A DNA stretch of 47,474 bases from Phycisphaeraceae bacterium (GCA_020831765.1 JAFIFY010000171.1:1-47474), one strand, 5' to 3'. Shown: positions 6,688 to 47,117, counted from the first letter of the stretch. The notes: generated by a model not told the origin, from the letters alone. Made by a program: numbers and translations.

Positions 6688-6737
6688 TTTGGTCAGGCAG
6701 AGGCACGCTCCGCCCGTTGAGTTTGAGGTTCGGTACG

Positions 6738-7983: not shown

Positions 7984-8007
7984 CTTCGAGGCTCATTGAC
8001 TTCGAGG
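7979..8007. repeat. Perfect 13-bp direct repeat ATTGACTTCGAGG x2 (3-bp spacer) spanning the stop codon of the DUF1559 gene
   Basis: ATTGACTTCGAGG at 7979-7991 and 7995-8007. Confidence 0.6.
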
Positions 8008-8230
8008 TTCTATGTCCCATCCGGCATATCCCACATCCGCGAATCACGAGTCCGAGGCTTGTTCAACGCCATTTAGCCCGGGGCAGGAACATACACGGCA
8101 ATAAGTCGCCCGGCTCATCGTCAAAGTTGTAAGTCGCGGACAGCGTGATGGCTGCGCGGCCGTTCCGTTGCGCAACTTACAAACGCCTCTTCGCCGAGGG
8201 CATATTCATTCGACCCGGAGAGTCCTGACC

Positions 8231-11916: not shown

Positions 11917-11942
11917 TTGCCGGCTTGGTGATGCGGCAGGGT

Positions 11943-13025: not shown

Positions 13026-13238
13026 GGGCTTCCGTTTGGATCATGAAGGCCGCCAGCGAGCAATGAACACGGGCGCGGCCATTGGGAAGATTACCCGGGG
13101 GCGACCCCTTCAATGCACAGCGCATCAACGCCGGCCAAAGCTCACCGACAAACCAGCAATCTTACAGAAATAACCCTGGATGGCCCACGGAAGATCGACG
13201 ATGGGAAGGGTGTCCGATCAATGAAGTCCGCGCTCCAG

Positions 13239-13283
13239 CTTCCGGGGGCTCGCTTCAGGGGGCGGGGGCTGGCTTCCGGGGGC
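13239..13283. repeat. Three copies of CTTC(C/A)GGGGG (reverse complement of CCCCCGGAAG) between rpmE and prfA
   Basis: CTTCCGGGGG at 13239 and 13274; CTTCAGGGGG at 13254. Same motif family as the repeats at 6738-6794 and 23915-24058. Confidence 0.5.
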
Positions 13284-13285
13284 GG

Positions 13286-13501
13286 CTAGTTCTTGCCGAA
13301 GTAGCTGCCCTTGAACTTACGCTGGAATTTCTCAACGCGGCCGGCGGCATCAACGAACTTCTGCTTGCCCGTGAAGAACGGGTGACACTTGTTGCAGATA
13401 TCCACATTGAGCTTGGGGCGGGTGCTGCGGGTGACAAAGGTGTTGCCACAGGCGCAGTGAACGTTGCACTCAACATACTCGGGATGAATCTTGGTCTTCA
13501 T
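13286..13501 (-). CDS. rpmE: 50S ribosomal protein L31 (Zn-ribbon type)
   Basis: [50 protein letters not shown] is near-identical to the canonical L31 N-terminus, with the CxxC...C..C/H zinc ligands. The true start is the ATG at 13499-13501, not the upstream ATG of the track ORF. Confidence 0.9.
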
Positions 13502-13675
13502 GGCCAAACTCCGACATCCAGCGCTCCTGACGGCAGCGCATCGATTCATGGCCGCAACCCGGCCAGGTGAAGCGAGCCCGGAATTGTAACACGAAACCCG
13601 ATGGCGTGCCCGGCGGGCACTTCCCTCAACGATCCGGCCCGGAAAATAGCCCGTAATCTCAATTCGCAGAATAAC

Positions 13676-14839
13676 TTACGACTCAATCATCGCCCGGTAC
13701 ATCGAAGCATAGGCTTCATGCATCCGATCCTGGTCGAAGTGATTGAGCAGGCGTTCACGGCCCGCCTCGCCCATCGCCCGCCGGCGGGGCTCATCGCCCA
13801 GAAGCTCAAGGATGTTTTCGGCCATGCCCTCGCTGTCGCGGCGCGGGCTGAGCAGGCCGGTCACACCGTGCTCGACCACCTCGGGGTTCCCCCCCACTTC
13901 CGTGGCCACGATCGGCACGCCGCAGCCCATCGCTTCCAGCAAGGTGACGGAAATGCCCTCGCTCAGGCTCGAAAGCAGAAAGAGATCGGCGGCATTGATG
14001 AGGTCTGGAACATCCGAACGCACGCCCAGCAGGCGGACGCTCTTCCAGATGCCATGCCGGCGTATCCGCTCGACGATCGCCTCTTTCTGTTCGCCATCAC
14101 CCACGAGTAGCAGCATCGCCTCGGGAATCGACTCGACCACGCGGGCGAACGCATCGATGGCCGTGAGATGATCCTTGACGGGATGGAAACGGGCGACCTG
14201 GAGCAGAATGGGCCGACCGTCGGTTACGCCCAACGAATAACGCAACGCGCTTCGCGCCGCGGCATCCGCCGGCTTGAATCGACCGGGATGAATGCCGTTG
14301 TGGATCACTTCGATTCGCTGGTCGGCAATGCCTTCGTTGTCGACAAGCGCCTTCTGAACCCATCGGCCCACGGCCGTGACCCGATCGGTCGGGCGGAGCA
14401 GCAATCGGTTGCTCCAGATACGTTTTCGGCTGGCTTGGTCCGGGTAATGGCGGCCGTGCTCGGTAAAGAGCAACCGGGGCCGACGGCGGATCAGGGGGCT
14501 GGGAATGATCGGCCAGGCGCGGCTGATGGCGGCATAGAAAAATGGTGTGTACTGATGGGCGTGGAGGATCGCCACGTTCTCCCGCCTGGCCGTGTCGCGG
14601 ATCCGGCGGGCCACGGCCATATCCACGCCCGGCCGGCGTTCCAGGTTCTCGACCGTAAAGCCCTCGTCCCGCAACGCCTCGCCCAGTGGCCCGACCTCAT
14701 CCAGGCAGAGGAACACGAAGCGAAACGGTGCCCGTTCATCGGCCGGATTCCCCAGCCGCCGGGCAAGATCGGCGGCCAGCACCTCGGCGCCGGCCAGGTA
14801 AAGTCGATGGAGGATGTGCGCGATCACCGGACGACTCAT
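13676..14839 (-). CDS. Glycosyltransferase family 4 (GT-B, glycosyl transferases group 1)
   Basis: GT4 N-terminal domain followed by a group-1 C-terminal domain with the EX7E-like region (GISVTLLEAMGCGVPIVATEVGGNPEVV). Probable start at MSRPVIAHIL. Confidence 0.8.
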   Translation of the reverse strand: MSRPVIAHILHRLYLAGAEVLAADLARRLGNPADERAPFRFVFLCLDEVGPLGEALRDEGFTVENLERRPGVDMAVARRIRDTARRENVAILHAHQYTPFFYAAISRAWPIIPSPLIRRRPRLLFTEHGRHYPDQASRKRIWSNRLLLRPTDRVTAVGRWVQKALVDNEGIADQRIEVIHNGIHPGRFKPADAAARSALRYSLGVTDGRPILLQVARFHPVKDHLTAIDAFARVVESIPEAMLLLVGDGEQKEAIVERIRRHGIWKSVRLLGVRSDVPDLINAADLFLLSSLSEGISVTLLEAMGCGVPIVATEVGGNPEVVEHGVTGLLSPRRDSEGMAENILELLGDEPRRRAMGEAGRERLLNHFDQDRMHEAYASMYRAMIES

Positions 14840-14905
14840 GGGCACGCATCGTAAATCACCGGACGCCCGGAGCAAAGCGCGATTCGCCGGGGACTTCCGA
14901 TTCGG

Positions 14906-16249
14906 TCACGCCGCCAGTTGATCATAACGCAGGTCTCGTGGATCGGGAACCTCTTCAAGCTCGGGCAGGATGTGATCCGCCGACGGCTCCACCTCCGCGA
15001 CTCGACGGACATAGGCGACCGTGGCCAGGCCGATCAGGGCCAGGGTGAAGCTGACCTCCACCGACTCCATCCCGATGAAGATGCTGCACGCCATGAAACC
15101 GAAGAGGCTGAGATTGATCATCTGCCCGAAATATCTGGGCCAGAATAGTCGCCTGGCCGTGGGCATGGTGGTCATCCGCTGACAGTGCCAGATCGTGCCC
15201 ACGTAAAAGAGCAAGAGGCCGAACAGGCCGGCGAATCCATAATCCGCACCCGTCTGGAGATACAGGTTATGGATGCTCTTATTCCGCGGCAGGCCGTACT
15301 GCTGGCTGAGCAGGTTGAAATTGCGCGGCCCAAGTCCCAAGGGCTTTTCCTTCATGGCCTGCCACCCGGCGGCCCATGTGTCCAGCCGGGCGGAAGCGGA
15401 GGCATCCCGTTCGGTCTCATCGGCGAAGGTCGTGAAGAACCGCTCGCGCACTTCCTCACCGGCGAGAAAGAGCGTCGCGACCGCCAGCACCACGGTCACC
15501 AACAAGGTCAATATACGATTGGGCAGGTAGACCATGCAGAAGGCAAACAGCGCACCACCTGTAATGATGAGCCCCAACTGACCGCCCCGGCTGTAGGAAA
15601 ACAGGATGACGTGGATCATGCACAGGGCCGCGAACATGCAGAATAACTTGACCCATAATCGCTTCTCGAAAATCGCGGTGAGCGCGGCGATGGGCACGCC
15701 CATGACCATGATCATCGCAAGGCCGTTGTTGTCCACACCCCCAAAGCCTCGATGGAGCAGGATATAGGCGAAGCGTGAGTCCTCCAGATACTGCGTATTG
15801 AGGCTGTAGGCCAACCATCCCACCGAAGCCAGCAATACCCACATCATCCACCGGATATGCCGGGGGTTGGTCAGGAGTGTCAGCAGCACGAGGCCCATCA
15901 GCCCGATCTTGAGCTGGATCTCCAGGAAGTGCCAGGCATAATCCGTCCGATACGCCCAGCCGAAAGTCGCCAGCGTTCCGCTGAGCAGATAGATGCCAAG
16001 CCCGATCATGGGCCATTTGACGTATCGCAGGTTACCCAGATGGCCGAAGCCGATCAGCACCCAACCAACCAGGGTCGAGACTCCGACCAGCATGCTGTGA
16101 TTGTGAAACGGCCAGGGCGCCCAGTGCCAGAGAAAAGTCGGGCGCAGCGTGGAAAAGGCATAGTAGACGAATATCCCGATCACCGGATTCATCCATCCGC
16201 AGGCCACACCGATAAAGGTCAACACGTTGGTAAAGATGAAACCCAGCAT
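14906..16249 (-). CDS. O-antigen ligase / Wzy-type polymerase-like polytopic membrane protein
   Basis: About 10-12 predicted TM helices with a large loop. It lies between glycosyltransferase genes. Composition is typical of the O-antigen ligase (Wzy_C) family. Confidence 0.6.
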   Translation of the reverse strand: MLGFIFTNVLTFIGVACGWMNPVIGIFVYYAFSTLRPTFLWHWAPWPFHNHSMLVGVSTLVGWVLIGFGHLGNLRYVKWPMIGLGIYLLSGTLATFGWAYRTDYAWHFLEIQLKIGLMGLVLLTLLTNPRHIRWMMWVLLASVGWLAYSLNTQYLEDSRFAYILLHRGFGGVDNNGLAMIMVMGVPIAALTAIFEKRLWVKLFCMFAALCMIHVILFSYSRGGQLGLIITGGALFAFCMVYLPNRILTLLVTVVLAVATLFLAGEEVRERFFTTFADETERDASASARLDTWAAGWQAMKEKPLGLGPRNFNLLSQQYGLPRNKSIHNLYLQTGADYGFAGLFGLLLFYVGTIWHCQRMTTMPTARRLFWPRYFGQMINLSLFGFMACSIFIGMESVEVSFTLALIGLATVAYVRRVAEVEPSADHILPELEEVPDPRDLRYDQLAA

Positions 16250-28444: not shown

Positions 28445-28846
28445 ATGAAGATTTATGTTGGCAACATCAGTTTCCAGACCGATGAAGAGGCGCTTCGCGG
28501 CCTGTTCACCAATTACGGCGGCGTTGATGAGGTGACGGTGATCACCGACCGCGAGTCGGGCCGTTCCCGGGGGTTCGCATTCGTCACGATGAGCGACGAC
28601 AGCGAAGCTCAGGCGGCGATCGAAGCGCTCAACGACAGCGACTTTGAAGGTCGCCCGCTCAAGGTCAATGAGGCCAAGCCACGCGAGGAGCGATCCGGCG
28701 GTGGCGGTTTCCGTGGTGGCGGCGGCGGCGGTGGATTCAGAGGGGGTCGTGAAGGCGGCGGTGGCCGGGGCGGCTATCGCGGCGGTGGCGGTGGTGGCGG
28801 TGGTGGTGGCGGCGGCGGCTACTCCAATTCGCGCGAGCGTTGGTGA
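28445..28846 (+). CDS. Glycine-rich RNA-binding protein (single RRM + RGG/Gly-rich tail)
   Basis: RRM with RNP2 (KIYVGN) and RNP1 (RGFAFVTM). The C-terminal [17 protein letters not shown]...[13 protein letters not shown] tail resembles cyanobacterial Rbp / cold-inducible GRPs. The true start is the ATG at 28445. Confidence 0.85.
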
Positions 28847-28883
28847 TTCCGCTGATCCGCAAAGCAGAATGCTGATTTGGTCT

Positions 28884-28920
28884 CAGGCGGATGTCCACAG
28901 GGCGTCCGCCTGTTCTTTTT
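28884..28920 (+). terminator. Rho-independent terminator of the RRM-protein gene
   Basis: CAGGCGGA ... TCCGCCTG, an 8-bp stem, is followed directly by TTCTTTTT, 38 nt after the stop codon. Confidence 0.75.
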
Positions 28921-29108
28921 CCGAGCATCCCGCGGCCAGACCCGAAATCAGGCCGCCTCCAAGCCATTCCAGTCATTGAGCCCGACAGCGTCCCATAACG
29001 CATGGCCAGCCGGCACTTGCTCCCGCCTTGCGGTTGCAGCGCATGCCTGCCGCGCCTTGATGGCCCCTTGTTCCAGCGCTCCGGAAACCCGAGCCGATAA
29101 ACCCGGGG

Positions 29109-31985
29109 ATGGTCCATCCACGAAACAGAACGGAGTGGCGGCCTCGCTGGGTCAGGCCGGCCTTGGCCGCCGCGCTGCTGGCCGGGTGGCTGCTTCTGGC
29201 CCCATCGGCCCCACAGGCCCGGTCCGGCGAGCCGATCACGGTGGACATTACCGCCGTCGGCGTCTCCGCGGCACCCGGTCGCACCGAGCCCGAGGCCCCG
29301 ATCGCCTCGGGACTTCCACCGCGCCTCATTCGGCACTTCGATTTCGAGGAGCCGAACAACGCCGAAATGATGCCGCGCGACTGGTACGCCATCGGCCGGC
29401 CGGAGGATACCGCCGACCCGAGCTTCGCCCGCGTACCGGTCCATCGCCAATTCGTGACACGCACCGGCTATCCCGCCTTCAACACGGTGGGATTCAACAA
29501 GTCGCAGCTTGAACCGGGCGATCACAATCTCCATCTGCGAACCGAAGCCGGAAGCGTCGGCGCTTTTCTGGCCATGGGTTCGGTCATCGCCCTGCCCAAT
29601 ACCGACTACCTGATCACCGCCCGTGTCAAGACAAGCGGATTGAGACATGCCCGCGCGCGGCTCTCGGCCGGCCTCGTGGATCAGGAGGGCAACTGGCTGG
29701 AGGATGCGATCATCCACGGGCCCGGTGTTCGCGGCGATGGACGCGACTGGGAAGATGTCCAGCTTCGCATTCATGGTCGATCCGGCGAAGCGGCGTGGAT
29801 GATTCTCTGGGTCGAACTGCTCCAGCCCCGGCAGCGGCACGACGATCAGCGACGGAACGAACACCAGGTGTTGTTGCAGGACATCGGGGCCGAGGCTTGG
29901 TTTGATGACATCAGCGTCTGGCAGATTCCCCGGATCATTCTGCGCACCCAGAACCCGGTCAACATCATCCGAGCGCCCGACCGGCCGGTGATTCACTGCG
30001 ACATCCGCGATCATGCCGATCAGCGCGTCACCGCCCGCATCCGCATCTACGATGAGTACCTTCATCTGATCGATGAAGACCGCCGCACGGTGGGTCGCGA
30101 TGTATCGCGCATCTGGCGATGGAATCCGAATCTGCCCCGATATGGCTGGTATCTGGCCGATCTTGAGCTTCACGCCGAGGGCCGGCCGGAACATCAGATC
30201 GGCCGATCGCTGCTTGCCCTGCTCTGGCTGCCACAAACCGCCGAGCGACCCGATCTCCACACACCCGCCTTTACCCTTGATCTTTCCGACATCGCCGACG
30301 AACACATCGCCCTCATGCCCGCCCTGCTTGGCCAGACGGCGCTGCGGAATGCCGCGATGAGCATCTGGACCCGGCGCACCGAGCCGGCCGACATCGACAG
30401 GCGCCAGAGCGACCTGGGCGGCGCCCACAACGAGCTTGGGCTGCGCGTCGGGGACATGATCATGAGTTTCTGGCCGCTGCCTGAGTATTTCGAGCGCCGA
30501 ACCACGCCGATCGATTCTTCGCTGGATGCCCTGGCCGGCCATGCCGCCATCTCCGATCCAATGATCCGGCCCGTGCTCCGCTACTGGGGTCAGCGCATCC
30601 GACGCTGGCAGTTGGGCGATGTGCCGGGCAATGCCATTCCGTTCGAGCCCAATCTGCGGGAACGCCTGGAACGATCCCACCGCAATCTCCGCATGCTGGC
30701 GCCCGATGCGGGCATGCTGCTGCCCTGGGGCGTGCAACACCCAGCCCCCCGCCTGACCATCCCCAATCTGCGCCTGGCCCTGGAAGTGCCCGTGACGGTT
30801 CCGCCGGCGACCATCCCCGAACTGGTCGATCGGATTCGTCGCGACAGCGCCGACACCCGCCACGCGCCGAAGATCGAATCGCTGCACCTGTTTTCTCCCT
30901 CGGCGCGGGAGATCAGCCAGCATCGCCGCATCACCGACATGATTCTCCGAATCGTTCACGCCTCGAGCGCCGATGTGCCTGAGCTGGTGCTGCGACAGAT
31001 ATGGACCCCCGCATCGGACCGCGATGCGGGCATGATGCCCGATCCCCTGCTGGGCGTCTTCGCCCAGGCGGCCGGAATGCTGGCCGGACAACGCCTGGTC
31101 GGACACATGCCGGTCATGCCGGGCGTCACCTGTCTGATCATGAATGGCGCGCGCGGACCGATGCTCGTGGTCTGGAACGAGCGATCCGACGTGAAGAACC
31201 CCGTCCTCGACCTGGACTTGGGCGGCGATGCCAAGGCATGGGATGTCTGGGGCAATCCGGTGCCGCTGGGCCGCGAACACGGCCGCGATCAACTTGCCCT
31301 GGACGACCGTCCGGTCTTCGTCACCGGCATCGACCTGAACCTCGCCCTGCTTCGCCGCTCGTTCGTGATGGACAAGCCGAAGATCCGCTCCAACCAGTTG
31401 CCCCAGACCCGCTACCTGACGTTGGGCAATCCGTGGCCGCGCACCATCCATGGAACCGTCCGCATCATCGAGCCTGAAGGCTGGAATATCGTCCCGATGC
31501 GACGATCGGTCGCGATCCCGGCCGGACAGACCATCACTTTTCCTTTGGTGATGCAGATGTTCCCCCGCCTCGAGGCCGCCGGCCGTCACAGACTGACCGT
31601 GCGGCTTCAGACGCCCGGCGAGCCCCAGTTGTCGGTCGACCTGCACGTCGATTTTGAAGTGGGGTTGGATGAGGTGGAACTGGATTCGGCCCTGACCATC
31701 GAACCTTCACGCATCCGAGGGCGGCCGGCCGACGCCGTGGTGGTCCAGCGACTGACCAATCGCACCGACCGGCCGATCTCGATCCGTGCCTTTGCCAACC
31801 TGCGCGGCCATCCCACCCGCGAGACACCCGTCCCCCAACTCATGCCGGGCCAGTCCCTGGTGATCCGCCTTCGATTCCCCGGCGGCGGACCCGACGCGGT
31901 CGAACATTCCGTCCGTACCGGCATCGAAGTCACCCCGGGCAACGACATTCTGATTCACCGCCTTCACGTTGACCTTGACGAATGA
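29109..31985 (+). CDS. Large secreted hypothetical protein (958 aa), unknown function
   Basis: Signal peptide MVHPRNRTEWRPRWVRPALAAALLAGWLLLAPSAPQA. This frame has strongly C/G-biased third codon positions and normal amino-acid composition. The overlapping 969-aa minus-strand ORF is Arg/Gly/His-rich with no signal, so I judge it antisense. Confidence 0.6.
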   Translation: MVHPRNRTEWRPRWVRPALAAALLAGWLLLAPSAPQARSGEPITVDITAVGVSAAPGRTEPEAPIASGLPPRLIRHFDFEEPNNAEMMPRDWYAIGRPEDTADPSFARVPVHRQFVTRTGYPAFNTVGFNKSQLEPGDHNLHLRTEAGSVGAFLAMGSVIALPNTDYLITARVKTSGLRHARARLSAGLVDQEGNWLEDAIIHGPGVRGDGRDWEDVQLRIHGRSGEAAWMILWVELLQPRQRHDDQRRNEHQVLLQDIGAEAWFDDISVWQIPRIILRTQNPVNIIRAPDRPVIHCDIRDHADQRVTARIRIYDEYLHLIDEDRRTVGRDVSRIWRWNPNLPRYGWYLADLELHAEGRPEHQIGRSLLALLWLPQTAERPDLHTPAFTLDLSDIADEHIALMPALLGQTALRNAAMSIWTRRTEPADIDRRQSDLGGAHNELGLRVGDMIMSFWPLPEYFERRTTPIDSSLDALAGHAAISDPMIRPVLRYWGQRIRRWQLGDVPGNAIPFEPNLRERLERSHRNLRMLAPDAGMLLPWGVQHPAPRLTIPNLRLALEVPVTVPPATIPELVDRIRRDSADTRHAPKIESLHLFSPSAREISQHRRITDMILRIVHASSADVPELVLRQIWTPASDRDAGMMPDPLLGVFAQAAGMLAGQRLVGHMPVMPGVTCLIMNGARGPMLVVWNERSDVKNPVLDLDLGGDAKAWDVWGNPVPLGREHGRDQLALDDRPVFVTGIDLNLALLRRSFVMDKPKIRSNQLPQTRYLTLGNPWPRTIHGTVRIIEPEGWNIVPMRRSVAIPAGQTITFPLVMQMFPRLEAAGRHRLTVRLQTPGEPQLSVDLHVDFEVGLDEVELDSALTIEPSRIRGRPADAVVVQRLTNRTDRPISIRAFANLRGHPTRETPVPQLMPGQSLVIRLRFPGGGPDAVEHSVRTGIEVTPGNDILIHRLHVDLDE

Positions 31986-32043: not shown

Positions 32044-32709
32044 TCACGGACCTTCGGCCAGCGCTGCTTCAATGGCCGTGATGACCTCGGGGCTGGTCGG
32101 GCTCTGCCGGGGCCGGAAACGCTGCACGATTCGACCATCCCGACCGATGAGAAACTTCTCGAAATTCCAGGTGATTTCGCCCGCGTGTTCGGGATTGGTC
32201 TGTTCCGACGTCAAGTGGGCGTAAAGCGGCGCGATGTCCTCGCCCTTCACGGAAATCTTGCTGAACATATCGAACCCGACCCCATAGTTGACCTGACAGA
32301 ACTCGGCGATCTGTTCGTTCGTGCCCGGCTCCTGGTTGCCGAAATTGTTGGCGGGAAATCCAAGGATGGATAGCCCGCGGTCGCGATACCGCTCGTGAAG
32401 CTCCTGAAGCTGGGCATACTGCGGCGTCAGTCCACAGCGGCTGGCCGTGTTGACGATGAGGATGACATCGCCCTGATACCGCGATGCCAGATGCACGGGA
32501 TCACCATCGATCCGCTTCAAGGTGAAATCAAGGGCCGATGGATGCGTCGCGGGGTTGGGTTCGGTCTTCACGGCTTTCGACTCCCTGGCGGGCCTGTCCA
32601 TCTGACACGCGGCCAGCGACATCACCGGCAACAGCATCCCAAGGCACATAAGGCTGAACTTGCTCACGATGGTCTCTCCGAACTGAGGATCAGCGAACGT
32701 TTCCATCAT
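32044..32709 (-). CDS. Glutathione peroxidase family protein (thiol peroxidase), lipoprotein-anchored
   Basis: The GPx signature region VILIVNTASRCGLTPQYAQLQELHERYRDRGLSILGFPANNFGNQEPG has Cys in place of Sec, plus the WNFEKFLI motif. The N-terminal signal has an AAC lipobox. Confidence 0.85.
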   Translation of the reverse strand: MMETFADPQFGETIVSKFSLMCLGMLLPVMSLAACQMDRPARESKAVKTEPNPATHPSALDFTLKRIDGDPVHLASRYQGDVILIVNTASRCGLTPQYAQLQELHERYRDRGLSILGFPANNFGNQEPGTNEQIAEFCQVNYGVGFDMFSKISVKGEDIAPLYAHLTSEQTNPEHAGEITWNFEKFLIGRDGRIVQRFRPRQSPTSPEVITAIEAALAEGP

Positions 32710-35738: not shown

Positions 35739-38700
35739 CTATTCCTCGCTTTCTTCCAGGCGGCGAATGATCCCCTGATACTTGTCCGCCAACGATTCGA
35801 GTGAATCAATCACCTGCTTGATTCGGCCCTCCTGGTCGGCGGTGATGCGGCTCAAGGGCTCCAGCCAGGCCTTCATCAGGTCGAACTGCTGCCGGATGAT
35901 GACCAGGAACGCTTCGGGAACCCGGTTGGTGATTCGAATCTGGTAAGGGCTGGGCTGACCGGTGACCTCTTCAGGCGTGGGTGGATCGGCGGCGGCCGGT
36001 GTGGCGGGCGGCGGCTCGGCGGGTTCGGGACGTTCGGCCCGTTCCTCGATCCAGCGCTGTGCGGCCGCGGCCAGGGCATCGAGCCGACTGGAAAGCTGAC
36101 TGGCCGCCTCGATCGCCTGATCATCGAACTTGGTCACCAAGGGCTTGCCGTTCTCGCCCTTGGCTCGCTCGATGGCGCTGCCGATCTGGCCCAGGCCCTC
36201 GTTGAACCGGCTCAATTGCGCCACCACCGCCGCGGTCTGATCGCCGCCCATCGCGGCCACCTCGTTCTGACGGACGAACGCCCGGCAAATCTCATCCCAC
36301 CGTTCCTTCTCCGTTTCACTCATCCAGCCCATCATCTCCTTGAACTTCAGCAGGTTGGCCTCCGCCCCGGTGGTCAGCATCTGGGCATCCTGCTCATAGG
36401 TCGAGAGCACAAGCGTCTTGAGCTCATCATCATTCATCACCGGCAGGATCCGCTCGGCGATGCGGTTCATGTTGCGGTAAGACCCTTGAAGCAGGAAGAC
36501 CGGCTCGCGACGATACCGATCATCCATGCCGGCCGAGCGGATGTACTGCTGATTGACGCGGAGAATGATGTCACGGACCTGAAGCAGCTTCTTCATCACA
36601 TTGACCATTTCCTCGATCTGGTCCGTGGTGAAGTTGGCCTCGAAATCTATGCCCTCGCGGGTGCCGGTTTCGGCGATGCGGATGATGTTGTAAACATCGC
36701 CCTGTGACCGCGTGGCCAGGTCGCGCAGCGTCGGGTTGCTGGTCAGGGCGTTTTCGATGTAACTGGTCCTGAACGCCTCGCCGTGATCCCCGATGATGTC
36801 GCCGAGGTTATAAGTGTCGGCACGGTTGGCCAGCATGTCGGGCACGCGGAACTTCTCACCGCTTTCGGTGTACGGATTACCCGCCATGACCACGGCGACC
36901 TTCCGGCCCCGCAGGTCGTAGGTTCTGGCCCGGCCCTTGTAGACGCCTTCGATCTTCCGCTGGGCATCGCACAGGGAGATGAACTTCTGCAGGAATTCCG
37001 GATGGGTGTGCTGAATGTCATCGACATAGATCATCACATTGTCGCCCATCTCGAAGGCGAGATTGAGCTTGATGATTTCCTCCCGGGCACCGGCGTTGGG
37101 CGCTTCCTCCGGATCAAGGCTCGTCACATCCCGGCCCAGCGCCGGGCCGTTGATCTTCATGAACACGATCCCCAGCCGACTGGCCAGGTATTCCATCAGG
37201 GTCGTCTTTCCATAGCCCGGCGGACTGATGACCATCAGCAGGCCGTTGCGGTCCGTTCGGGCATCGGCCCCGGCCGTGCCGATCTGCTTGGCCATGTTGG
37301 CCCCGATCAGCGGCAGGAAGACGCGGTCGATCAGGCGATTCCGCACGAACGTGGTCAACACGCGGGGCGTGAACTCATCGACCCGCATCTGGTCGCGTGT
37401 CCGCTCGACGATGCGGCGTTTGGCGGCGGTGAATCGCTCGAAACGCGGAACATCCTCCCGCGCGAACCGGCCGAGCCGATCGACGAACTCGAGGTAATCC
37501 AGCTCCATTCGCCCCTGCTTGATGCGGCCATGCCCGCCGCGCAGCCCTTCGACGGTCCGCCGCGCCTGAACGGGCAGCAATCGTCCATGGTCCCCCGTCC
37601 GGTCATACAACTTGAACGCCGCCTCATCCAGGCACAGACCGGCCCGGGCCTGATCCCGGTCCGAATCACGCACGAACGCCGCCAGCCAGTCACGGGCGAG
37701 CAGGAATCGCGCCATCGGCCCCTGGTCGGCCGCGTCCAGCGACTGATTGAAGCGAAGTTGCAGGTGATTGGCCTTGAGATGATCCTCAAAGGCGTTGATC
37801 AGTTCATCGGCTTCCGGGCTGGTGATGAATCCCGGTTCCTCACCGGTCAGCTCGAGGAAGAGATACTCAGCGGCCTGTTGGGCATGATCGGCGGAGAAGA
37901 CAGAATTCTGCTCGGCGAATTCGCCGATCAGCCGCGCGACCTTGTGGATGTATTGTTCCTGCCTGCGCGACTCGGGAAAAGCCCGGACCACCTCGGCATA
38001 CCCCTCGAGTTGCGAGGCGATAAAGCGTTTGGCCGGTGAGTCCTGGGCCGCGCGCCAGAACATTCCGGCCAGGGCCCGGGCCGCGCTGGAATACCGCAGA
38101 AGACCGATGGACTCGGATAGATCGACCAATTCCCGTACGATCAGGGCGGCATCGGCATCATGCACGCCTTTGGTATAGCCTTCGCCGTAGCGCGGCCCCA
38201 TGAAGCGTCGGACATGTTCCAGCAACCGATCGCCGCCGGGGTCCAGAAGCTCTCGACGTTCCATCTCCGGCATGGCAAGGAGGTCAGGCAGCATGACGAA
38301 CGCCAGGTACTCAGCTCGATAGACCGCCTCGTTCTCGCTGATCAGTTCCTGATTCCAGGCTTGACGTGCTTCATTGAGGTCAACATCATCCACCGGCTCG
38401 AAGAACCGGGTTCCGTTGATGTGAAGCTGCATCTTTCCATCGCGCTGCACCATGGTCAGTTCGATGGGCTGGGTGTTGACCGAAAAGACATGCCGCCCGA
38501 AACGGATGCTGTTGGGCCCTTCGGCCTGCAAGTCCAGCCGATCCTTCAGCCGCCGGACCGCATCCTCCCTCAGGCTGCGGAGGCGGCCCTGAATGTCATC
38601 GGCCCGCACCGTGTCTTCAAGGCCGATCAGTTCCTTGACGATGTCGCGAAGCTTGTCGATCATCAGGTCGCCGGCGAAATAACCATTGATCGCCGCGATC

Positions 38701-41072
38701 GAATCCATCGCCTCGACCCGTACCTTGATGCCGGAGAGAATGCGGTCGGCGGCCTGGCCCAGGGCGATCGCCCGCCGATTGCGCCGCTCGACCAGTTGCA
38801 GCTTGCGCTGCTCAAATGCGCTGACCACATCATCGCGGGTCTGGGCCAGGCGGACCACGAAGTCATCAAACTCCGCGAAGCGTCCCTCCAATTCCTCGAT
38901 TTGGACCAGCATCCGGGTCAGAAACGTATCGACCTTCAGCGGCTCATCGCACAGGTCCAGGTAGTTGGCCGTGCTCTGGGAGAGCAATCGAAGCTGGCTG
39001 TTGAACTCGGCCTCGCCTTCGACGCGCCCCAATTCCCCGGCGCGGTTGCGAAGCGCCTGACGCGAAGCGTTCAGATTGCCGAAGATCGCCGAGATGGCAT
39101 CAATGATCGTCGTCCGCTGCGTGCTGTCTTCGATCTTGAGGTTGCCCACGATCTCGATGAGCATTTCAAGCTCGGAGGCGGCGGCTTCAATCTCAGTGCC
39201 CAGCTCACGGGCATCCACGGCGGTCCGCACCGCTTCAATCCGGGCCGGAAATTCCCCGACACGGTCGCGATAGGGCTGAAGCGAATCCTCCTTGAGCAGA
39301 AAGGCCACGCAACGTTGACTGAGGGTCTCGGTCTGTTCGGTGACATCGGCTTCCATCGCCTCGACCCGCCGCGCATCGGCGTACCGGACTTCCTTGAGCC
39401 CGATGATCCGTCCCCGCGCTTCGCGAAGCTCGGCCAGCGCTGTGACGAACGCATCAATATGGTTGTACATCCGCGCGGCGTTCCGCGCGATCATCGCGCG
39501 CGTCCGGTCCTCTTCCTCGCCGATCGCCTGGTCGGCGGCGCGGCGGAGGCGGACGACCTTCTCATACTCGGCCACGGCCGACTGCCCCGTCTCACGGATG
39601 CGCCCGATCACCTGGTCGAGATTGAAGCATTCATCTTCCCGGAGCCAGTGGTAGCCCTCGAGCAGGTCCGAGGATGTCTTGACGATGTCCAGGTAGAGAT
39701 CGCTGTATAGCGATTCCCGCTCGATGAGCTGAAGCAGTTGAGCGCACTCGGCCATGCCCCGCACGATGTCACGATTGCCGATCTTGTAAAGTCGCGAGCT
39801 GGCGTCACCCTCGACCCGCTGATTGGGGCCGATGAACGGGGTCTGCCATATCTGGAGGGCATGGTGGCGCTGCGGCTCTTCGTGCGACTTGAAGTAAACC
39901 AGCTTGCCATCCTCGAACAGGCTGAATCCCGAGCAGATGATCGGCGTGTCGATGCGCTGTTCGATCAGGTTGTAGGGCAGAAGCGCGTAAGTGCCCTGGT
40001 CACGATGGTAGAAGACGTAGAGGAAATCCTCACCGTTGGGGCTGGAGATGCGGCGCTCGTGGATCATCCCATCGGGCACATTCGAGAACGTCTGATGCCG
40101 CCCCGAGGCCAGGTAGAAGCCCTTGCTGAAGATCAGGCCGTGATCATCCGGAAGCATCAGGCAGGAACCGGCCAGGGCATCTTGGCGGACCACCTCGTGA
40201 AGCTTTTCATTGAAAATGAAATAGCGGAACTGATTTTCCTTGAACGGCTTGATGCGAAGCAGGATCAGGTGGCCGTGAACGGCGTAGCTGATGTCGGCAT
40301 CGTCCGGGCCCTGGTCAGGATCATCGACCGGCTCGGCGTAGATGCCCCGGCCGTGCTCGGTGCTGTCCTCGATCTTGATCGTCAGCTCGCCGGAAATGGT
40401 CTCGACGAAGACCCGATCCTCGATGGAATAGTGGGGAAACTTGCCCGGGCGCAGCATGTCGCGCGTCACACGCTTCCAGTCCAGGTCGTGCGCCGCCGGA
40501 TAGCGGATTTCGTGATCCGACCGGTTGTCGACATAGACCAGTTGGTCACCTTCGATCGCCCATTTGAAGGCCTTGAAGTCTTCGCGATCGCGGCCCACCT
40601 GGAACTTCATGTACAGATAGGGAGCATTGAGGAAGAACTTGCTGAACGTCGCGTTGCGATAGAAGCGATAGAGATCTTTGAATTCCTTGACGAACCGGTC
40701 CGTGGCGATCGGCTTGATCGGTTCTTCGTGAAACTGCTCGCCATCAAAGCGGCTGCATGTGAACACATCGCCGACGTCGATCTCCTGCTTGAGACCGAAA
40801 CGAACGTTGTAGCCGAAGAGAAAGCGCTCACCGAACGCGGCCATATCGCGCGGCACGCAGTTGTGCGGCGTGGTGATGCGATCGGTGCCGATCAGCCGGG
40901 TCTCGACGCCACCGAAAACCTTCTTCCGCGCTTCATTGAGCTTGTCCAGGCGCGCGCGCAGATCGCGGCCGGCCTGAACCAGCCTCTCCCGGAGCACCTG
41001 GTAGGCGCCCTGATCCATTTCCCGCTCTTCGGGTTCCGCCGCGGCCTCGGGCGCTGGAGTCTGCTCGGCCAT
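35739..41072 (-). CDS. Giant (~1780 aa) protein with a single MoxR/dynein-type AAA+ (AAA_5-like) ATPase module, long coiled-coil/helical N-terminal region and Pro/Glu-rich C-terminal tail
   Basis: Walker A LMVISPPGYGKTTL; Walker B MIYVDDIQ. Sensor-1-like VVMAGNPYTE and Arg-finger-like VPDMLANRAD lie about 1250-1450 aa from the N-terminus. I recognise no other domain. The start is probably MAEQTPAPE (ATG at 41070-41072); the track ORF starts at 41105. Confidence 0.65.
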   Translation of the reverse strand: MAEQTPAPEAAAEPEEREMDQGAYQVLRERLVQAGRDLRARLDKLNEARKKVFGGVETRLIGTDRITTPHNCVPRDMAAFGERFLFGYNVRFGLKQEIDVGDVFTCSRFDGEQFHEEPIKPIATDRFVKEFKDLYRFYRNATFSKFFLNAPYLYMKFQVGRDREDFKAFKWAIEGDQLVYVDNRSDHEIRYPAAHDLDWKRVTRDMLRPGKFPHYSIEDRVFVETISGELTIKIEDSTEHGRGIYAEPVDDPDQGPDDADISYAVHGHLILLRIKPFKENQFRYFIFNEKLHEVVRQDALAGSCLMLPDDHGLIFSKGFYLASGRHQTFSNVPDGMIHERRISSPNGEDFLYVFYHRDQGTYALLPYNLIEQRIDTPIICSGFSLFEDGKLVYFKSHEEPQRHHALQIWQTPFIGPNQRVEGDASSRLYKIGNRDIVRGMAECAQLLQLIERESLYSDLYLDIVKTSSDLLEGYHWLREDECFNLDQVIGRIRETGQSAVAEYEKVVRLRRAADQAIGEEEDRTRAMIARNAARMYNHIDAFVTALAELREARGRIIGLKEVRYADARRVEAMEADVTEQTETLSQRCVAFLLKEDSLQPYRDRVGEFPARIEAVRTAVDARELGTEIEAAASELEMLIEIVGNLKIEDSTQRTTIIDAISAIFGNLNASRQALRNRAGELGRVEGEAEFNSQLRLLSQSTANYLDLCDEPLKVDTFLTRMLVQIEELEGRFAEFDDFVVRLAQTRDDVVSAFEQRKLQLVERRNRRAIALGQAADRILSGIKVRVEAMDSIAAINGYFAGDLMIDKLRDIVKELIGLEDTVRADDIQGRLRSLREDAVRRLKDRLDLQAEGPNSIRFGRHVFSVNTQPIELTMVQRDGKMQLHINGTRFFEPVDDVDLNEARQAWNQELISENEAVYRAEYLAFVMLPDLLAMPEMERRELLDPGGDRLLEHVRRFMGPRYGEGYTKGVHDADAALIVRELVDLSESIGLLRYSSAARALAGMFWRAAQDSPAKRFIASQLEGYAEVVRAFPESRRQEQYIHKVARLIGEFAEQNSVFSADHAQQAAEYLFLELTGEEPGFITSPEADELINAFEDHLKANHLQLRFNQSLDAADQGPMARFLLARDWLAAFVRDSDRDQARAGLCLDEAAFKLYDRTGDHGRLLPVQARRTVEGLRGGHGRIKQGRMELDYLEFVDRLGRFAREDVPRFERFTAAKRRIVERTRDQMRVDEFTPRVLTTFVRNRLIDRVFLPLIGANMAKQIGTAGADARTDRNGLLMVISPPGYGKTTLMEYLASRLGIVFMKINGPALGRDVTSLDPEEAPNAGAREEIIKLNLAFEMGDNVMIYVDDIQHTHPEFLQKFISLCDAQRKIEGVYKGRARTYDLRGRKVAVVMAGNPYTESGEKFRVPDMLANRADTYNLGDIIGDHGEAFRTSYIENALTSNPTLRDLATRSQGDVYNIIRIAETGTREGIDFEANFTTDQIEEMVNVMKKLLQVRDIILRVNQQYIRSAGMDDRYRREPVFLLQGSYRNMNRIAERILPVMNDDELKTLVLSTYEQDAQMLTTGAEANLLKFKEMMGWMSETEKERWDEICRAFVRQNEVAAMGGDQTAAVVAQLSRFNEGLGQIGSAIERAKGENGKPLVTKFDDQAIEAASQLSSRLDALAAAAQRWIEERAERPEPAEPPPATPAAADPPTPEEVTGQPSPYQIRITNRVPEAFLVIIRQQFDLMKAWLEPLSRITADQEGRIKQVIDSLESLADKYQGIIRRLEESEE

Positions 41073-43237: not shown

Positions 43238-43948
43238 TTAGAATCGACGAACAAGAAATACATGGGTCCGGGGCTCCTGCTTGACCAGGACGACCTCATC
43301 GCCCCGCTTGAGCGCTTCGCCCGGCTCGGTCAGACGCGCATTGAATCTCAGCGGAGCCCCGGAGGTTTCCACTTCCACCTGCCCGAACCGCTCGTCGAGC
43401 GTTCCGGAGACCACCCGGCCGCGACGGCCCACCAGAACCAGGTTCCGCTCGGCCATCTCCTCTTCCCGCAGTTTGCGGAAAACCTTCACGAGCGGCTGGG
43501 TCATCACCTTGGTGATCAGGGCGGCGCCGATGCCGAAGGGAACCAGCATCAGCGCCTGGAACAGCAGGCTCCATTCGCCCACCCAGGTATGGCTGGCCAC
43601 GCCCACCACCCAGAGCACCAGGACGAAGATCGAGAGCAGGAACATCAGGGGCACTTCGCCGACATTGAAAAACCGAAGGGCGTTGAGCATGATCGCCCCG
43701 CCGGAAAGCCCCGAGTCTCCCGCCGCGCCCCCGTGGTGGCCATCGAGAATGCCATCCCCGCCGATGTGCCCCACATCCCCTCCATCGAAATCCAGGTCCG
43801 CATCCACGTGGCCGTCCAGGTCCACATCCAGCGAATCCATCGTCAGCGCCCCGAAGATCACCAGCAACCAATAGAAAAGCAGCAACCCCAGCAGGGTCGT
43901 CAGCACCAGATTGACAGGCGAAAGAATGGCCTCGATCAATTCTGACAC
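43238..43948 (-). CDS. NfeD/YqiJ-like membrane protein (flotillin partner) with Asp/His/Gly-rich loop and C-terminal OB-fold
   Basis: TM helix, then acidic loop DSLDVDLDGHVDADLDFDGGDVGHIGGDGILDGHHGG, then TM helices. The C-terminal ERFGQVEVETSGAPLRFNARLTEPGEALKRGDEVVLV aligns with E. coli YqiJ [27 protein letters not shown]. Gene order YqiJ-like then flotillin. Confidence 0.7.
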   Translation of the reverse strand: MSELIEAILSPVNLVLTTLLGLLLFYWLLVIFGALTMDSLDVDLDGHVDADLDFDGGDVGHIGGDGILDGHHGGAAGDSGLSGGAIMLNALRFFNVGEVPLMFLLSIFVLVLWVVGVASHTWVGEWSLLFQALMLVPFGIGAALITKVMTQPLVKVFRKLREEEMAERNLVLVGRRGRVVSGTLDERFGQVEVETSGAPLRFNARLTEPGEALKRGDEVVLVKQEPRTHVFLVRRF

Positions 43949-44146: not shown

Positions 44147-45763
44147 TCAGGGCCTCGCCGCGGTCCGGGGCATGAGCGGTGTGGGTTTGTCGGAATATTC
44201 AAGCGGGATGATCAGGCTGAAGGTCGCCCCCTCCCCGAGATTGGAATCCAGCAGAATCTCGCCCTGTAACAGCTTCGCCAGATCGCGACTTATCGTCAGA
44301 CCCAGCCCGGTGCCGCCATGTTCGCGCGTGACCGTGTGGTCCAGTTGCTTGAACTTGTCAAAGATTCGCTGGTGGTTTTCGGGTGCGATGCCCGGCCCGG
44401 TGTCCCGGACGCTGAGGCGGAGCCTGGCCCGTGACGCATCCACACCCACGGGCCAGAGCATCGCCGAGAGCGTGACCGTTCCACCTTCCGGTGTGAACTT
44501 GATCGCGTTGCTCAGGAAGTTGAAGAGTATCTGTTGAAGCCGGCCGGCGTCGGTGACCACCAGCGGCAGGTTGCGCTGGATATCCAGCTCCAATTCCACG
44601 CCGCGCTTCTCCGCCTGGGGTCGCATCAGGTTGATCAGGCCTTCGCAGGTGTCGGCGATCGAAGTCGGCGCGGGTCGGATGTCCATTCGCCCGGCCTCGA
44701 TCTTGGCCAGGTCCAGCAGATCCTTGATCAACTCCAGCAAGTGCCTGCCCGAAGCCACGATGTTGTTCAGGTATCGCCGGCGCTTGGCCGCTTCCGGGTC
44801 ATCCTGATCCGATGAATTCTGCTCGAGCACCTCGGCGAAACCGATGATCGCGTTCAGCGGCGTGCGCAACTCATGCGAGACGTTGGCCAGGAACTCGCCC
44901 TTGACCTTGTTGGCTTCATCCAGCGCCACGTTGATCTCGGCCAGGGCGCCAAGCCTCAAATCCAGCGACTTGTTGGCCGAGCGCAATTCCTCCTGATTCT
45001 TGCGCAGGTTCTCAAGCATGGTGTTGAACACATCGGAGAGTTGCTCGAACTCATCACCGGTGTCAATATCGGATCGGATGTTCAAATCGCCTTCGCCGAC
45101 TTTCTCGGCCGTATCCCGCAGCAGCCGCACCGGTGAGAGGATCAGCCGGGTGGTGATGAACCAGAACGCGGCGATGGCCAGCAGGCCGGCCAGAAGTCCG
45201 CCGGCGATGATGTAGATGCGGTTGATCAGAAGCTGGCGGTCGGCGGTGTCGGTGCGAAGCTGAACCAGCAGGACGAAGCTGAGCGGATCGGCCAGGTGGG
45301 TGACACTCAGGTCAGGGCCGAAACGATCGAACGGCCCGCCGATCAGGCCCGTTTCGCTCTTGCGGACCGCGCGGGCGTAACGGAACACCCGGGCCCCCTG
45401 ATGGCGGGCGTCGGCGAAGGCCTCGGTCGCATCCGGATGGCGTTCAAACCGCTCGATGGCCTGAGCGATGAACGAATCGGTCCTGGTGTAATCAACGAAC
45501 TCGTCCGACCGGATCAGCCGAACCAGCATCTCATCACGCTCGGGACTGTCGAACGGGTCGAACAGGCTCAGCCGCCCCACTTCCAACTGCCCGCTCAGCA
45601 GCGACTGGGCCACGCTTCGGGCACTCTCGGCCAACTGAGCCTCGACCAGTTGACTCATCCGAACCCAGGCCACGGCCAGCGCGGCGAGAATGATCAGCAA
45701 TACCGCCGCGCCAAAGAGAATCTGGCATTTGTTGGCAAGGCTGATGCGAATCGGTCGCCGCAT
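44147..45763 (-). CDS. Sensor histidine kinase (2 TM + periplasmic sensor, HAMP, HisKA, HATPase_c); no cognate response regulator adjacent
   Basis: H-box EFLANVSHELRTPLNAIIGF; N, G1, F and G2 boxes present (FLSNAIKFT, VRDTGPGI, GGTGLGLTIS). A HAMP linker follows the second TM. Confidence 0.85.
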   Translation of the reverse strand: MRRPIRISLANKCQILFGAAVLLIILAALAVAWVRMSQLVEAQLAESARSVAQSLLSGQLEVGRLSLFDPFDSPERDEMLVRLIRSDEFVDYTRTDSFIAQAIERFERHPDATEAFADARHQGARVFRYARAVRKSETGLIGGPFDRFGPDLSVTHLADPLSFVLLVQLRTDTADRQLLINRIYIIAGGLLAGLLAIAAFWFITTRLILSPVRLLRDTAEKVGEGDLNIRSDIDTGDEFEQLSDVFNTMLENLRKNQEELRSANKSLDLRLGALAEINVALDEANKVKGEFLANVSHELRTPLNAIIGFAEVLEQNSSDQDDPEAAKRRRYLNNIVASGRHLLELIKDLLDLAKIEAGRMDIRPAPTSIADTCEGLINLMRPQAEKRGVELELDIQRNLPLVVTDAGRLQQILFNFLSNAIKFTPEGGTVTLSAMLWPVGVDASRARLRLSVRDTGPGIAPENHQRIFDKFKQLDHTVTREHGGTGLGLTISRDLAKLLQGEILLDSNLGEGATFSLIIPLEYSDKPTPLMPRTAARP

Positions 45764-45885
45764 ATCGCCATTGTCAGCTATTCAGACGGAAATGTCGATT
45801 TCGCATCCCGCGAGCCCGGCAACAGACGACAATCGACCCCCGAGAACCCACGCATGGAGAGCGGTCACGACGCCGAGCGCACCGA

Positions 45886-46914
45886 TCACGGCCCGGGCGG
45901 AATCGGCGTACGCACGGCATTGGCCTGCCGGGACTGGACCTGATCGTATCGTCGCGCCCAATGTTCATACACCACCCGAGCCGCCAGCCAGTCGACGCCA
46001 AAATCGCCCGGCTTTTCCCAACCATCGGCGTAATCGCGCACGCTGCCATCGGCAAACCCGATGTTGGCGCGGCCATCGCCGCGCGGCTGAACCGGGCCGC
46101 CAGACACATGCCCGTGCCCCCCCTCGATCACACTTTGACGCTGATTCTCGGGCGGTTGATAGGTACTGAAGTGCCGGAACATCGGGTCACCGGTTCGTGA
46201 GAGGTAACTGCCCGGCTGTCGATAGCCGTGATATCGCATCGCATTCCCGTTACCGTCTCCCATCAGCACGACCGTTTCGGGCGGGATGGATGAATTGCCG
46301 ATGCCGCGATACGGCGTATAGAACTTTTGCGGCGAAGGGCTTGTCCAGAAAGCGCCCCAACCGGAGCCACCCTGTCCATTGGGACGATTCAGATTGCCAT
46401 TGATGGTGTAGCTGACACCCGCCAGCGGATCACCAACTCCCATTCCCGACCCGATCATCCGATCGATCGTCTCGACGGTGTGCGTCGGCGCCGAGGGACA
46501 CCAGAGATACTTTTCATCAAGGACCAGGTCCGATGGCATCAACTGCGGCCGGCCGCGAATCCGCCACTCCGGGCGGCCATTGTGATCGATGCCGGCCATA
46601 TAGTCGGCCAGTCGAGCATGCGCTGTCCCCATCCATCCCGCGAATCCAAAAAGCTTGCCTGAGTCGAAACCTACTGAAAGCGTAGGATCCGGCGCGGCGT
46701 GGTTCGATATCCAGTGGTCGCCCGAATCCGTCGCATAGGTCGCCATCCCCAGCACGTTCTGGCGAAGCTGCGACTTGCAAAGCACATAACGGGCCGCCTC
46801 ACGGGCGTGACCCAGGGCCGGAAGCAGGATCGCGATCAGCATCGCGATGATCGAGATCACCACGAGCAATTCGATCAGGGTGAAGCCTGCTCTGGAGGGA
46901 TGCGACTTGGACAT
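45886..46914 (-). CDS. DUF1559 family protein with prepilin-type N-terminal methylation domain
   Basis: [10 protein letters not shown]|[24 protein letters not shown]. The likely start is the ATG at 46912-46914. Confidence 0.75.
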
Positions 46915-47117
46915 GGTCAACCTTTCCGGGTGACGGAGCACCCATCTGAAAGCATCCGACATTGTTCGGCAGGACCGGTGTCAATCGATCACGAGATATC
47001 TCTGTCGGCAACGCCAGACGGAATCGTCAATGGCGCAATCGGTGCGACCCACAACATAAGGTGACACCCCCTCCGGAATGCGCATCCTGGCGAACGGTCG
47101 CCATGTGAACGCAACGA

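Follow-up and report, generated by a model that had tools for sequence, protein, structure and literature searches.

The closest described relative of the system analyzed here is an operon reported by comparative genomics (Ravi et al., mSystems 2024; PMC11237479), in which a CesT/Tir-PspA dyad is encoded together with a flotillin, a YqiJ/YuaF-type transmembrane (TM) protein, and an ATPase, and for which a role in membrane dynamics was proposed. The same study found an abbreviated flotillin-YqiJ(-ATPase) operon to be more widely distributed, listed in its supplement a 'Betapropeller+Coiled-coil+AAA-ATPase' protein after the flotillin of Dokdonia, and described two further associations, namely, the co-occurrence of PspA with a protein of two AAA+ domains whose N-terminal one is inactive, and operons in which DUF2491 and polyamine-metabolism genes stand alongside the CesT/Tir-PspA dyad (PMC11237479). 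In B. subtilis, PspA depends on an SPFH protein for its link to the membrane (Scholz 2021, as cited in PMC7619361), and the citing paper, a 2025 review, also states that a Vps4-like partner for ESCRT-III-type proteins appears absent in bacteria. Here, we analyzed a stretch of 47,474 nucleotides from a Phycisphaeraceae bacterium (GCA_020831765.1 JAFIFY010000171.1:1-47474, hereafter the window), which encodes a giant AAA+ ATPase directly behind a flotillin-like and a YqiJ-like protein. The function, assembly, and dismantling of bacterial flotillins and other SPFH scaffolds are largely open questions. The HflK/C-FtsH system couples an SPFH-family membrane scaffold, genetically or physically, to an AAA+ ATPase; flotillin-type SPFH proteins are not known to have an ATPase dedicated to them. 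Since the giant is a large, strongly conserved AAA+ protein that is gene-coupled to flotillin and YqiJ in at least 10 phyla, it is an obvious candidate for such a flotillin ATPase.

The original prediction made on this stretch had described one giant open reading frame (ORF), a description that a sequencing or assembly fusion would refute. The ORF is real and encodes a protein of 1777 amino acids (aa) in a single reading frame on the minus strand (coordinates of this and all other features are given in Table 1); mechanically extended, it reaches further, to a TTG at 41105. A database protein (P0001) is 100% identical to it and bears the name 'DNA repair ATPase [Phycisphaeraceae bacterium]'. 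At least 4623 homologs exist and, among the 120 matches listed, query coverage ranged from 92 to 100% and identity from 49 to 81%, with the same set of Pfam families. Because these homologs are collinear, full-length (about 1600-1950 aa), and present in complete genomes and isolates, e.g., Gimesia and Symmachiella, an assembly fusion is ruled out.

The giant also proved to carry recognizable domains outside its P-loop, where the original prediction had seen none. Pfam DUF3686 (PF12458) matched aa 37-475 over the entire profile (positions 1-448 of 448; E=1.6e-177, 591 bits for a cut-off of 25), and DUF7902 (PF25472) matched aa 596-678 (E=1e-25, 90 bits). Both the match to DUF3686 and the collinear order of DUF3686, DUF7902, and a C-terminal AAA module, which together define membership, were found in the giant. 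A hydrophobicity scan revealed no TM segment, and the giant, judged from its sequence, is thus a soluble protein of about 200 kDa within the DUF3686 family. This family comprises thousands of full-length homologs in at least 10 phyla, forms about 230-670 clusters at 50% identity, and has its N-domain always at the N-terminus of proteins of 1600-2000 aa; giants of Planctomycetota and Bacteroidota still share about 50% identity. The family was therefore less novel than first implied, being a Pfam domain of unknown function with an NCBI name and an operon treated in comparative genomics (PMC11237479). Searches of open-access papers and bioRxiv for DUF3686, PF12458, or 'DNA repair ATPase' together with flotillin returned neither a paper nor an experiment, and a 2026 survey of P. 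aeruginosa SPFH proteins makes no mention of the ATPase. The giant is accordingly a further member of a catalogued, experimentally uncharacterised family whose operon was already described computationally.

In the window, five genes run head to tail on the minus strand, encoding the YqiJ-like protein, the flotillin-like protein, the giant, a PspA-like protein, and a 608-aa AAA protein. The flotillin-like protein matched Band_7 (PF01145; E=1e-9, 39.1 bits) when aa 1-230 were scanned alone, the Pfam scan of the whole protein being empty, and has its TM segment at aa ~13 (Kyte-Doolittle 3.2). The YqiJ-like protein scored slightly under the cut-off of 23 for Pfam YqiJ_N (E=6.7e-4, 20.3 bits), and the equivalent gene in two related loci (L081 and L082) carries PF21001. 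A scan of one genome per GTDB species returned at least 596 loci encoding a giant, spread over Planctomycetota, Bacteroidota, Verrucomicrobiota, Desulfobacterota, Kiritimatiellota, Omnitrophota, and Clostridia; 80 of them were retrieved, 62 with more than 3 kb of upstream sequence. A flotillin homolog lay directly upstream of the giant in 59 of the 62, at a distance of 2-2379 bp that was mostly below 300 bp, and a YqiJ homolog usually preceded the flotillin gene (tblastn, most loci). The genes found between flotillin and giant in wide-gap loci were heterogeneous. Searching a plasmid database added Proteus, Vibrio, Photobacterium, Halomonas, the Pseudomonas plasmid pQBR103, Streptomyces, Nonomuraea, Deinococcus, and Hymenobacter to the distribution. 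The order YqiJ-flotillin-giant recurred in Streptomyces, Proteus, and pQBR103, the outer flanking genes of the loci differed entirely, and no conserved downstream partner of the giant emerged across the 62 loci. Since no downstream gene is conserved and the flanks differ completely, the conserved unit is a three-gene core. The linkage to flotillin, whose constancy the original prediction had left as a question, thus holds across many phyla, and the giant is near-obligately linked to two membrane proteins that form large SPFH assemblies in other systems.

Three loci illustrate the range of these contexts. In L087 (JGI Ga0502771_0002524, 4130..15501), the five-gene cassette sits between rplL and rpoB within an otherwise conserved ribosomal-protein/RNA-polymerase cluster, which suggests that it travels as a unit. 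On the Pseudomonas fluorescens SBW25 plasmid pQBR103 (L088, record 86507..97641), a small hypothetical protein, an SPFH protein, and a 'DNA repair ATPase' are encoded directly after DUF2491, DUF350, DUF1190, and glutathionylspermidine-synthase-like genes. We take the latter genes to correspond to E. coli yjfK/L/M/C; YjfJ, a homologue of PspA, is a further product of the yjf locus. This plasmid could serve as a tractable genetic system. Lastly, a Bacteroidota locus (L064, ~5290..9388) encodes a multi-TM spermidine-synthase-like protein and small TM proteins downstream of the giant, and these genes resemble the polyamine-linked PspA operons of Ravi et al.

Such mobility raises the question of whether the cassette is a mobile conflict system, directed against phages or plasmids, with the giant as effector or sensor, flotillin and YqiJ as its platform, and an N-terminal propeller sensing the invader. 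The cassette does move as a unit into unrelated contexts such as the rplL-rpoB interval, it occurs on megaplasmids (pQBR103, Streptomyces, Hymenobacter, and Deinococcus) and is patchy among related genomes, and defence systems often include very large ATPases with repeat sensors. However, PADLOC-DB v2 gave only a marginal mad8 match on the P-loop region of the giant (E=4.7e-4, 17.8 bits) and nothing for flotillin or YqiJ, its matches on the PspA-like protein being coiled-coil noise only. Moreover, a search of 50,697 phage records returned no homolog, effector domains (nuclease, protease, TIR, Sir2, or others) were absent, no defence genes recurred nearby, and conservation is high and uniform across phyla, unlike that of fast-evolving defence sensors. 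We consider a conflict function improbable.

The core feature of the giant is a single AAA+ module, the only P-loop and only AAA+ match in its 1777 aa. The four ATPase motifs named in the original prediction were all present and in order, and their conservation was assessed in an alignment of 79 family sequences from at least seven phyla, in which the AAA core showed the highest mean column consensus of the protein (0.84 versus 0.47-0.66 in the other regions). The putative sensor-1 and arginine-finger residues were assigned from the MoxR-type pattern 'NP....G....P..L..R', and R1533 in the lid may act as sensor 2. Sequence methods alone are insufficient to decide the AAA+ family of the module. 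AAA_5, the dynein-related subfamily, scored 21.3 bits on the whole giant for a cut-off of 22 and 23.4 bits on the isolated module (profile positions 3-126 of 139), and PF00004, AAA_22, and RuvB_N gave similar scores on the isolated module. The classical AAA family (PF00004; Cdc48/Vps4/katanin clade) was tried and rejected as an identity for the module, PF00004 aligning over its first half only rather than in full length with a second region of homology. Comparison of the whole giant with PDB chain sequences detected only Walker-A-level similarity to RuvB, p97, and Rix7 (E>=0.016), a profile of the AAA module doing no better, and NCBIfam returned only sub-threshold RuvB matches of ~50 residues (17-19 bits versus cut-offs near 290).

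Structure prediction was more informative. Two AlphaFold2 (AF2) models were built from 66-sequence alignments, covering aa 1-860 (pLDDT 85.2) and aa 840-1777 (pLDDT 82.3, pTM 0.69). In fold comparison, the modeled module scored highest with CbbQ, a member of the MoxR family (14.9), the dynein motor domain (14.8), NorQ (14.6), and midasin (14.3), followed by ClpA and ClpB (13.2 and 12.9) and by classical AAA proteins (10-12). The model also contains a beta-hairpin (strands aa 1373-1378 and 1381-1386) between the Walker B and sensor-1 strands, which fits the pre-sensor-1-hairpin superclade that is home to MoxR and dynein. In the helix-2 insert region, a conserved loop of ~18 residues (aa 1309-1326) precedes helix 2, and DSSP shows no hairpin there. 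The predicted fold and the near-complete AAA_5 profile match thus support a MoxR/dynein-class AAA+ module, in line with the single MoxR/dynein-like module originally proposed.

These observations bear on the annotation of the family. The Pfam description of DUF3686 reads 'ATPase involved in DNA repair', and homologs are named 'DNA repair ATPase' by NCBI and UniRef; together with the weak RuvB_N/RuvB similarity around Walker A, this wording would favor a DNA-repair ATPase of the SMC/Rad50 kind, whose helical region would be an SMC-like coiled coil. Such an enzyme should have an ABC-type head split by a coiled coil, whereas the N-terminus of the giant is a propeller and its sole P-loop belongs to an AAA+ module at aa 1283. 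No SMC, Rad50, or ABC-type family appeared among the Pfam or NCBIfam matches, and Pfam, NCBIfam, and PADLOC detected no DNA-binding or nuclease domain. Furthermore, the fold of the module is MoxR/dynein-like, the RuvB matches are short and far under their cut-offs, the helical region is spectrin-like, the conserved neighbors are membrane proteins, and our searches found no literature behind the name. A role in DNA repair is therefore very hard to credit, and the name 'DNA repair ATPase' is unsupported and probably misleading.

The nearest solved folds, CbbQ and NorQ, invite a different explanation, in which the giant would be a MoxR-type chaperone for the maturation of another complex, inserting a metal or cofactor as these two proteins do, and would adjoin flotillin by stress co-regulation only. 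The glutathione peroxidase and histidine kinase genes near the cassette in the window could be read in its favor, but neither is conserved in related loci, flotillin and YqiJ being the sole conserved neighbors. In addition, neither a VWA/MIDAS adaptor nor a candidate client is conserved nearby, and the downstream genes are unrelated across the 62 loci. Pfam detected no VWA/MIDAS domain in the giant or the cassette, and the FHA/VWA_3 gene that follows the cassette in one related locus (L086) has no counterpart in the window. We regard the chaperone explanation as quite unlikely.

Outside the ATPase module, the AF2 models predict an N-terminal helix, a divergent beta-propeller, a spectrin-like arm, a middle domain, the AAA+ module, and a variable tail. 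The first ~1250 aa had been expected to be helical or coiled-coil; aa 59-410 are instead all-beta in the model (pLDDT 85), smaller beta elements occur at aa ~855-893 and ~1171-1192, and only aa 427-849 and ~919-1156 are helical. A Foldseek search of the beta domain against the PDB had WD40 and other propellers as its top matches, with E-values down to 1.8e-6 at TM-scores of only 0.3-0.39. The helical arm of ~420 aa resembles spectrin repeats rather than the antiparallel coiled coil of SMC proteins. The middle domain is mostly modeled with pLDDT above 85, yielded no specific structural match, and, with a mean column consensus of 0.47, varies most among the folded regions. A low-complexity tail had been noted at the C-terminus, and its Pro/Ala/Glu-rich stretch was located in the linker ERPEPAEPPPATPAAADPPTPEEV (aa 1680-1703, window 35964-36035; pLDDT <50). 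The tail is present in Planctomycetota and some other lineages, whereas homologs from Bacteroidota and Clostridia stop near aa 1640 and lack it; the consensus of the tail is 0.14, and the terminal helix, where present, retains a few near-invariant residues, e.g., W1736 and P1739.

This architecture could also suit a protein that is mainly structural, i.e., a spectrin- or proto-coatomer-like skeleton or coat beneath the membrane, anchored by flotillin, with an ATPase that only regulates polymerisation. The spectrin-repeat-like arm is long, the order of propeller then helical repeats aligns to the IFT-A subunit 8fgw_A over 866 columns (E=3e-6, Foldseek), and a D-D Walker B would be consistent with slow switching. 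Against this, the matches to coat proteins have very low TM-scores (0.11-0.13), nothing points to polymer-forming interfaces, and conservation peaks in the AAA+ core (0.84 versus 0.61 for the arm), where every catalytic residue is invariant, which argues that ATP turnover is central. A purely structural role is thus unlikely, if somewhat conceivable.

The genes downstream of the giant define a lineage-specific extension of the core. The PspA-like protein (276-aa form, P0121, with homologs annotated as 'PspA/IM30 family protein' or 'phage shock protein A') alone matches PspA_IM30 at E=0.007-0.011, and its family profile reached only E=0.06 to Vipp1/PspA among PDB sequences; the assignment is made because PF04012 is found in about half of its homologs (16 of 34, best E=4.4e-6). 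The 608-aa protein matches PF00004 at aa 374-493 (E=8.8e-17) and the VAT/p97 D2 domain (E=6e-23), and its N- and C-terminal halves align to each other with an hhalign probability of 91.6% (E=8e-7), the N-terminal Walker B reading EAAD in place of DEAD. A PspA-like gene follows the giant in L083 and L084 (each 81% identity) and in L085, L086, and L087, and, except in L085, a gene for the 608-aa AAA protein comes next, so that the five-gene set is found in L083, L084, L086, and L087. Both genes are absent from L081, which encodes a 66%-identical relative of the giant, and from the vicinity of the giant in all 80 loci of other phyla. The proposed position between flotillin and PspA is therefore correct for this locus, with a flotillin-like gene upstream and a divergent PspA/IM30 gene downstream, and does not hold in general, the PspA-like gene being an addition to the core in the Phycisphaerae clade only.

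Many other giants of the clade with at least 52% identity lie on contigs equal in length to one with a homolog of the PspA-like or 608-aa AAA protein, and the two downstream families share at least 25 contigs of identical length, some of only 1.9-8 kb. Because of these shared contigs, the PspA-like and two-domain AAA genes are seen as a dyad that is frequent in its own right. The homolog of the 608-aa AAA gene in L091 has no annotated PspA gene beside it, and in L092 the AAA gene lies 341 nt from the contig end and is uninformative; the dyad is thus frequent and may not be universal. From their sequences, the divergent PspA and the 608-aa AAA protein are a candidate bacterial pair of the ESCRT-III and Vps4 type, which bears on the question of whether bacteria have a Vps4-like partner.

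Taken together, these results make it plausible, if still tentative, that the giant is an ATPase that remodels the flotillin/YqiJ membrane assembly. As in other MoxR-class AAA+ proteins, the giant would assemble into a ring through its AAA+ modules; the invariance of the candidate arginine finger points to an inter-subunit active site of this kind. Propeller-tipped helical arms would project from the ring, and the giant would dock on the cytoplasmic face of the flotillin/YqiJ oligomer; the giant itself has no TM segment, whereas flotillin and YqiJ both do. ATP could then be used to assemble, open, disassemble, or relocate the SPFH scaffold or the clients held in it, in a relationship like that of Vps4 with ESCRT-III or of FtsH with the HflK/C cage. 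In the Phycisphaerae lineage, the five genes, which add the PspA-like protein and the classical AAA, might act as one membrane-stress or membrane-repair unit, and this would agree with the recruitment of PspA to the membrane by an SPFH protein in B. subtilis, as cited in PMC7619361. A bolder version of the proposal is doubtful: the giant would be a hexameric MoxR/dynein-class motor and the missing energy-consuming partner of flotillin, whose propeller-tipped arms take hold of the flotillin/YqiJ dome to open it, turn it over, or move it, and which in Phycisphaerae is joined in series by an ESCRT-III-like PspA polymer and a two-domain AAA of the Vps4 type. If true, it would amount to a complete ATP-driven bacterial membrane-repair or membrane-remodeling machine in Phycisphaerae.

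Several observations weigh against a remodeling ATPase. Open-access papers and bioRxiv report no interaction, ATPase activity, oligomeric state, or phenotype for any member of the family. Synteny indicates a functional link and not its direction, and the giant could be a client, a regulator, or an effector of flotillin. The Walker B motif is D-D, not D-E, in every member (79/79), so that ATP may be hydrolyzed slowly or in the manner of a switch, unlike in a processive motor. A VWA/MIDAS partner, with which MoxR proteins usually work, was detected neither in the giant nor in the cassette. The link to PspA is limited to one clade. Three of the 62 loci (L017, L042, and L050) have no adjacent flotillin gene. 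Finally, yqiJK is present in E. coli and many other bacteria that lack the giant (PMC11237479); a DNA-level search with the Proteus gene likewise found no giant in E. coli genomes. A functional partnership between the giant and flotillin is much more likely than the mechanistic proposal as a whole, in which it is a guess what the giant does and in which direction it acts. The remodeling proposal is directly testable, given that the family is present in tractable hosts such as Proteus mirabilis, Vibrio campbellii, Streptomyces, Hymenobacter, and Gimesia, and on the Pseudomonas plasmid pQBR103.

Table 1. Features of the window, with positions counted from its first nucleotide; conservation is given for the alignment of 79 family sequences.
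Feature	Position	Strand	Description
Giant ORF	35739..41072	minus	ATG at 41072, stop at 35739-35741; 1777 aa + stop
DUF3686 region (aa 37-475)	39648..40964	minus	Helix aa 21-53, then predicted all-beta, propeller-like domain aa 59-410 (Pfam, AF2)
Helical arm (aa 427-849)	38526..39794	minus	Predicted spectrin-like three-helix repeats; holds DUF7902 (aa 596-678, window 39039-39287)
Middle domain (aa 855-1229)	37386..38510	minus	Helical domain between two small beta units, then long helix into ATPase (predicted)
Single AAA+ module (aa ~1245-1640)	36153..37340	minus	Alpha/beta core, beta-hairpin before sensor-1 strand, enlarged helical lid (predicted)
Walker A, SPPGYGKTT (aa 1283-1291; K1289, T1290)	37200..37226	minus	Invariant, 79/79
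Walker B, IYVDDIQ (aa 1348-1354; D1351-D1352)	37011..37031	minus	D-D invariant, 79/79; usual form D-E
Putative sensor-1 Asn (AGNPY, aa 1397-1401, N1399) to candidate arginine finger (ANRAD, aa 1415-1419, R1417)	36816..36884	minus	Both 79/79
Candidate sensor-2 motif in lid, QGSYRNMNR (aa 1529-1537)	36462..36488	minus	R1533 in 78/79, one gap; motif invariant in two other comparisons
C-terminal tail (aa 1641-1777)	35742..36152	minus	Helix, Pro/Ala/Glu-rich disordered linker, terminal helix aa ~1720-1776 (predicted)
YqiJ/YuaF-like small multi-TM protein	43238..43948	minus	First gene of conserved three-gene core; hydrophobic segments
Flotillin-like protein, 694 aa	41136..43220	minus	N-terminal TM, SPFH/Band_7, long charged coiled coil, C-terminal region
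Divergent PspA/IM30-like protein, 276 aa	34669..35499	minus	Start MLKAVGRYF; mechanical ORF starts at 35598
Two-domain AAA protein, 608 aa	32764..34590	minus	Degenerate N-terminal AAA and active classical C-terminal AAA domain
HAMP/HisKA/HATPase_c histidine kinase	44147..45763		Pfam
Glutathione peroxidase	32044..32709		Pfam

In the window, the cassette is flanked on one side (44147..46962) by genes for the sensor kinase and for a type IV pilin-like protein (N_methyl/DUF1559) of a kind typical of Planctomycetota, and on the other (32044..32709) by the glutathione peroxidase gene; none of the three is kept as a neighbor in related loci. Further along, at 28737..31985, ORFs of 969 aa (minus strand) and 958 aa (plus strand) overlap almost completely and have no Pfam match; both were considered as counterparts of the FHA/VWA protein encoded after the cassette in L086, and neither is related to it. 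A promoter and terminator scan gave counts near shuffle expectation and was uninformative.

The suggestion that the giant may be a dynein or midasin (Mdn1/Rea1) in miniature is not supported, since these proteins carry six modules in one chain, whereas the giant has one and would have to homo-oligomerise. Dynein furthermore has a coiled-coil stalk inserted in its ring, while the predicted helical arm of the giant is N-terminal and spectrin-like, and midasin ends in a MIDAS domain, for which the giant has no VWA/MIDAS match. The MoxR proteins CbbQ, NorQ, and RavA are nearest in predicted AAA+ fold, and their Walker A and B motifs, sensor-1, arginine finger, and pre-sensor-1 hairpin all have putative equivalents in the giant; they are, however, proteins of ~250-500 aa with a VWA/MIDAS partner, whereas the giant has ~1250 aa ahead of its module, a D-D Walker B, and an enlarged lid. 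HflK/C-FtsH offers a functional analogy for the giant and flotillin in its coupling of an SPFH scaffold to an AAA+ ATPase, although FtsH is a membrane-anchored classical AAA protease inside the cage, and the giant is predicted to be soluble, has no protease domain, and belongs to another AAA+ clade. The Vps4/ESCRT-III pair, an AAA ATPase dedicated to a membrane-bound polymer, suits the 608-aa AAA instead, here a protein of the Cdc48/Vps4/katanin clade encoded after the PspA-like gene, the giant having neither an MIT domain nor the classical-AAA signature. The operon of Ravi et al. differs in two respects: its Dokdonia prototype contains a CesT/Tir-PspA dyad, which the paper treats as optional and for which Pfam found no CesT/Tir-like gene in the five-gene cassette, and the PspA-like gene lies here downstream, paired with a two-domain AAA, a pairing that the paper treats separately. 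In its domain order, in both upstream partners (the Band_7/TM flotillin and the YqiJ-type protein), and in its association with PspA, the giant of the window is alike to the ATPase of that operon.

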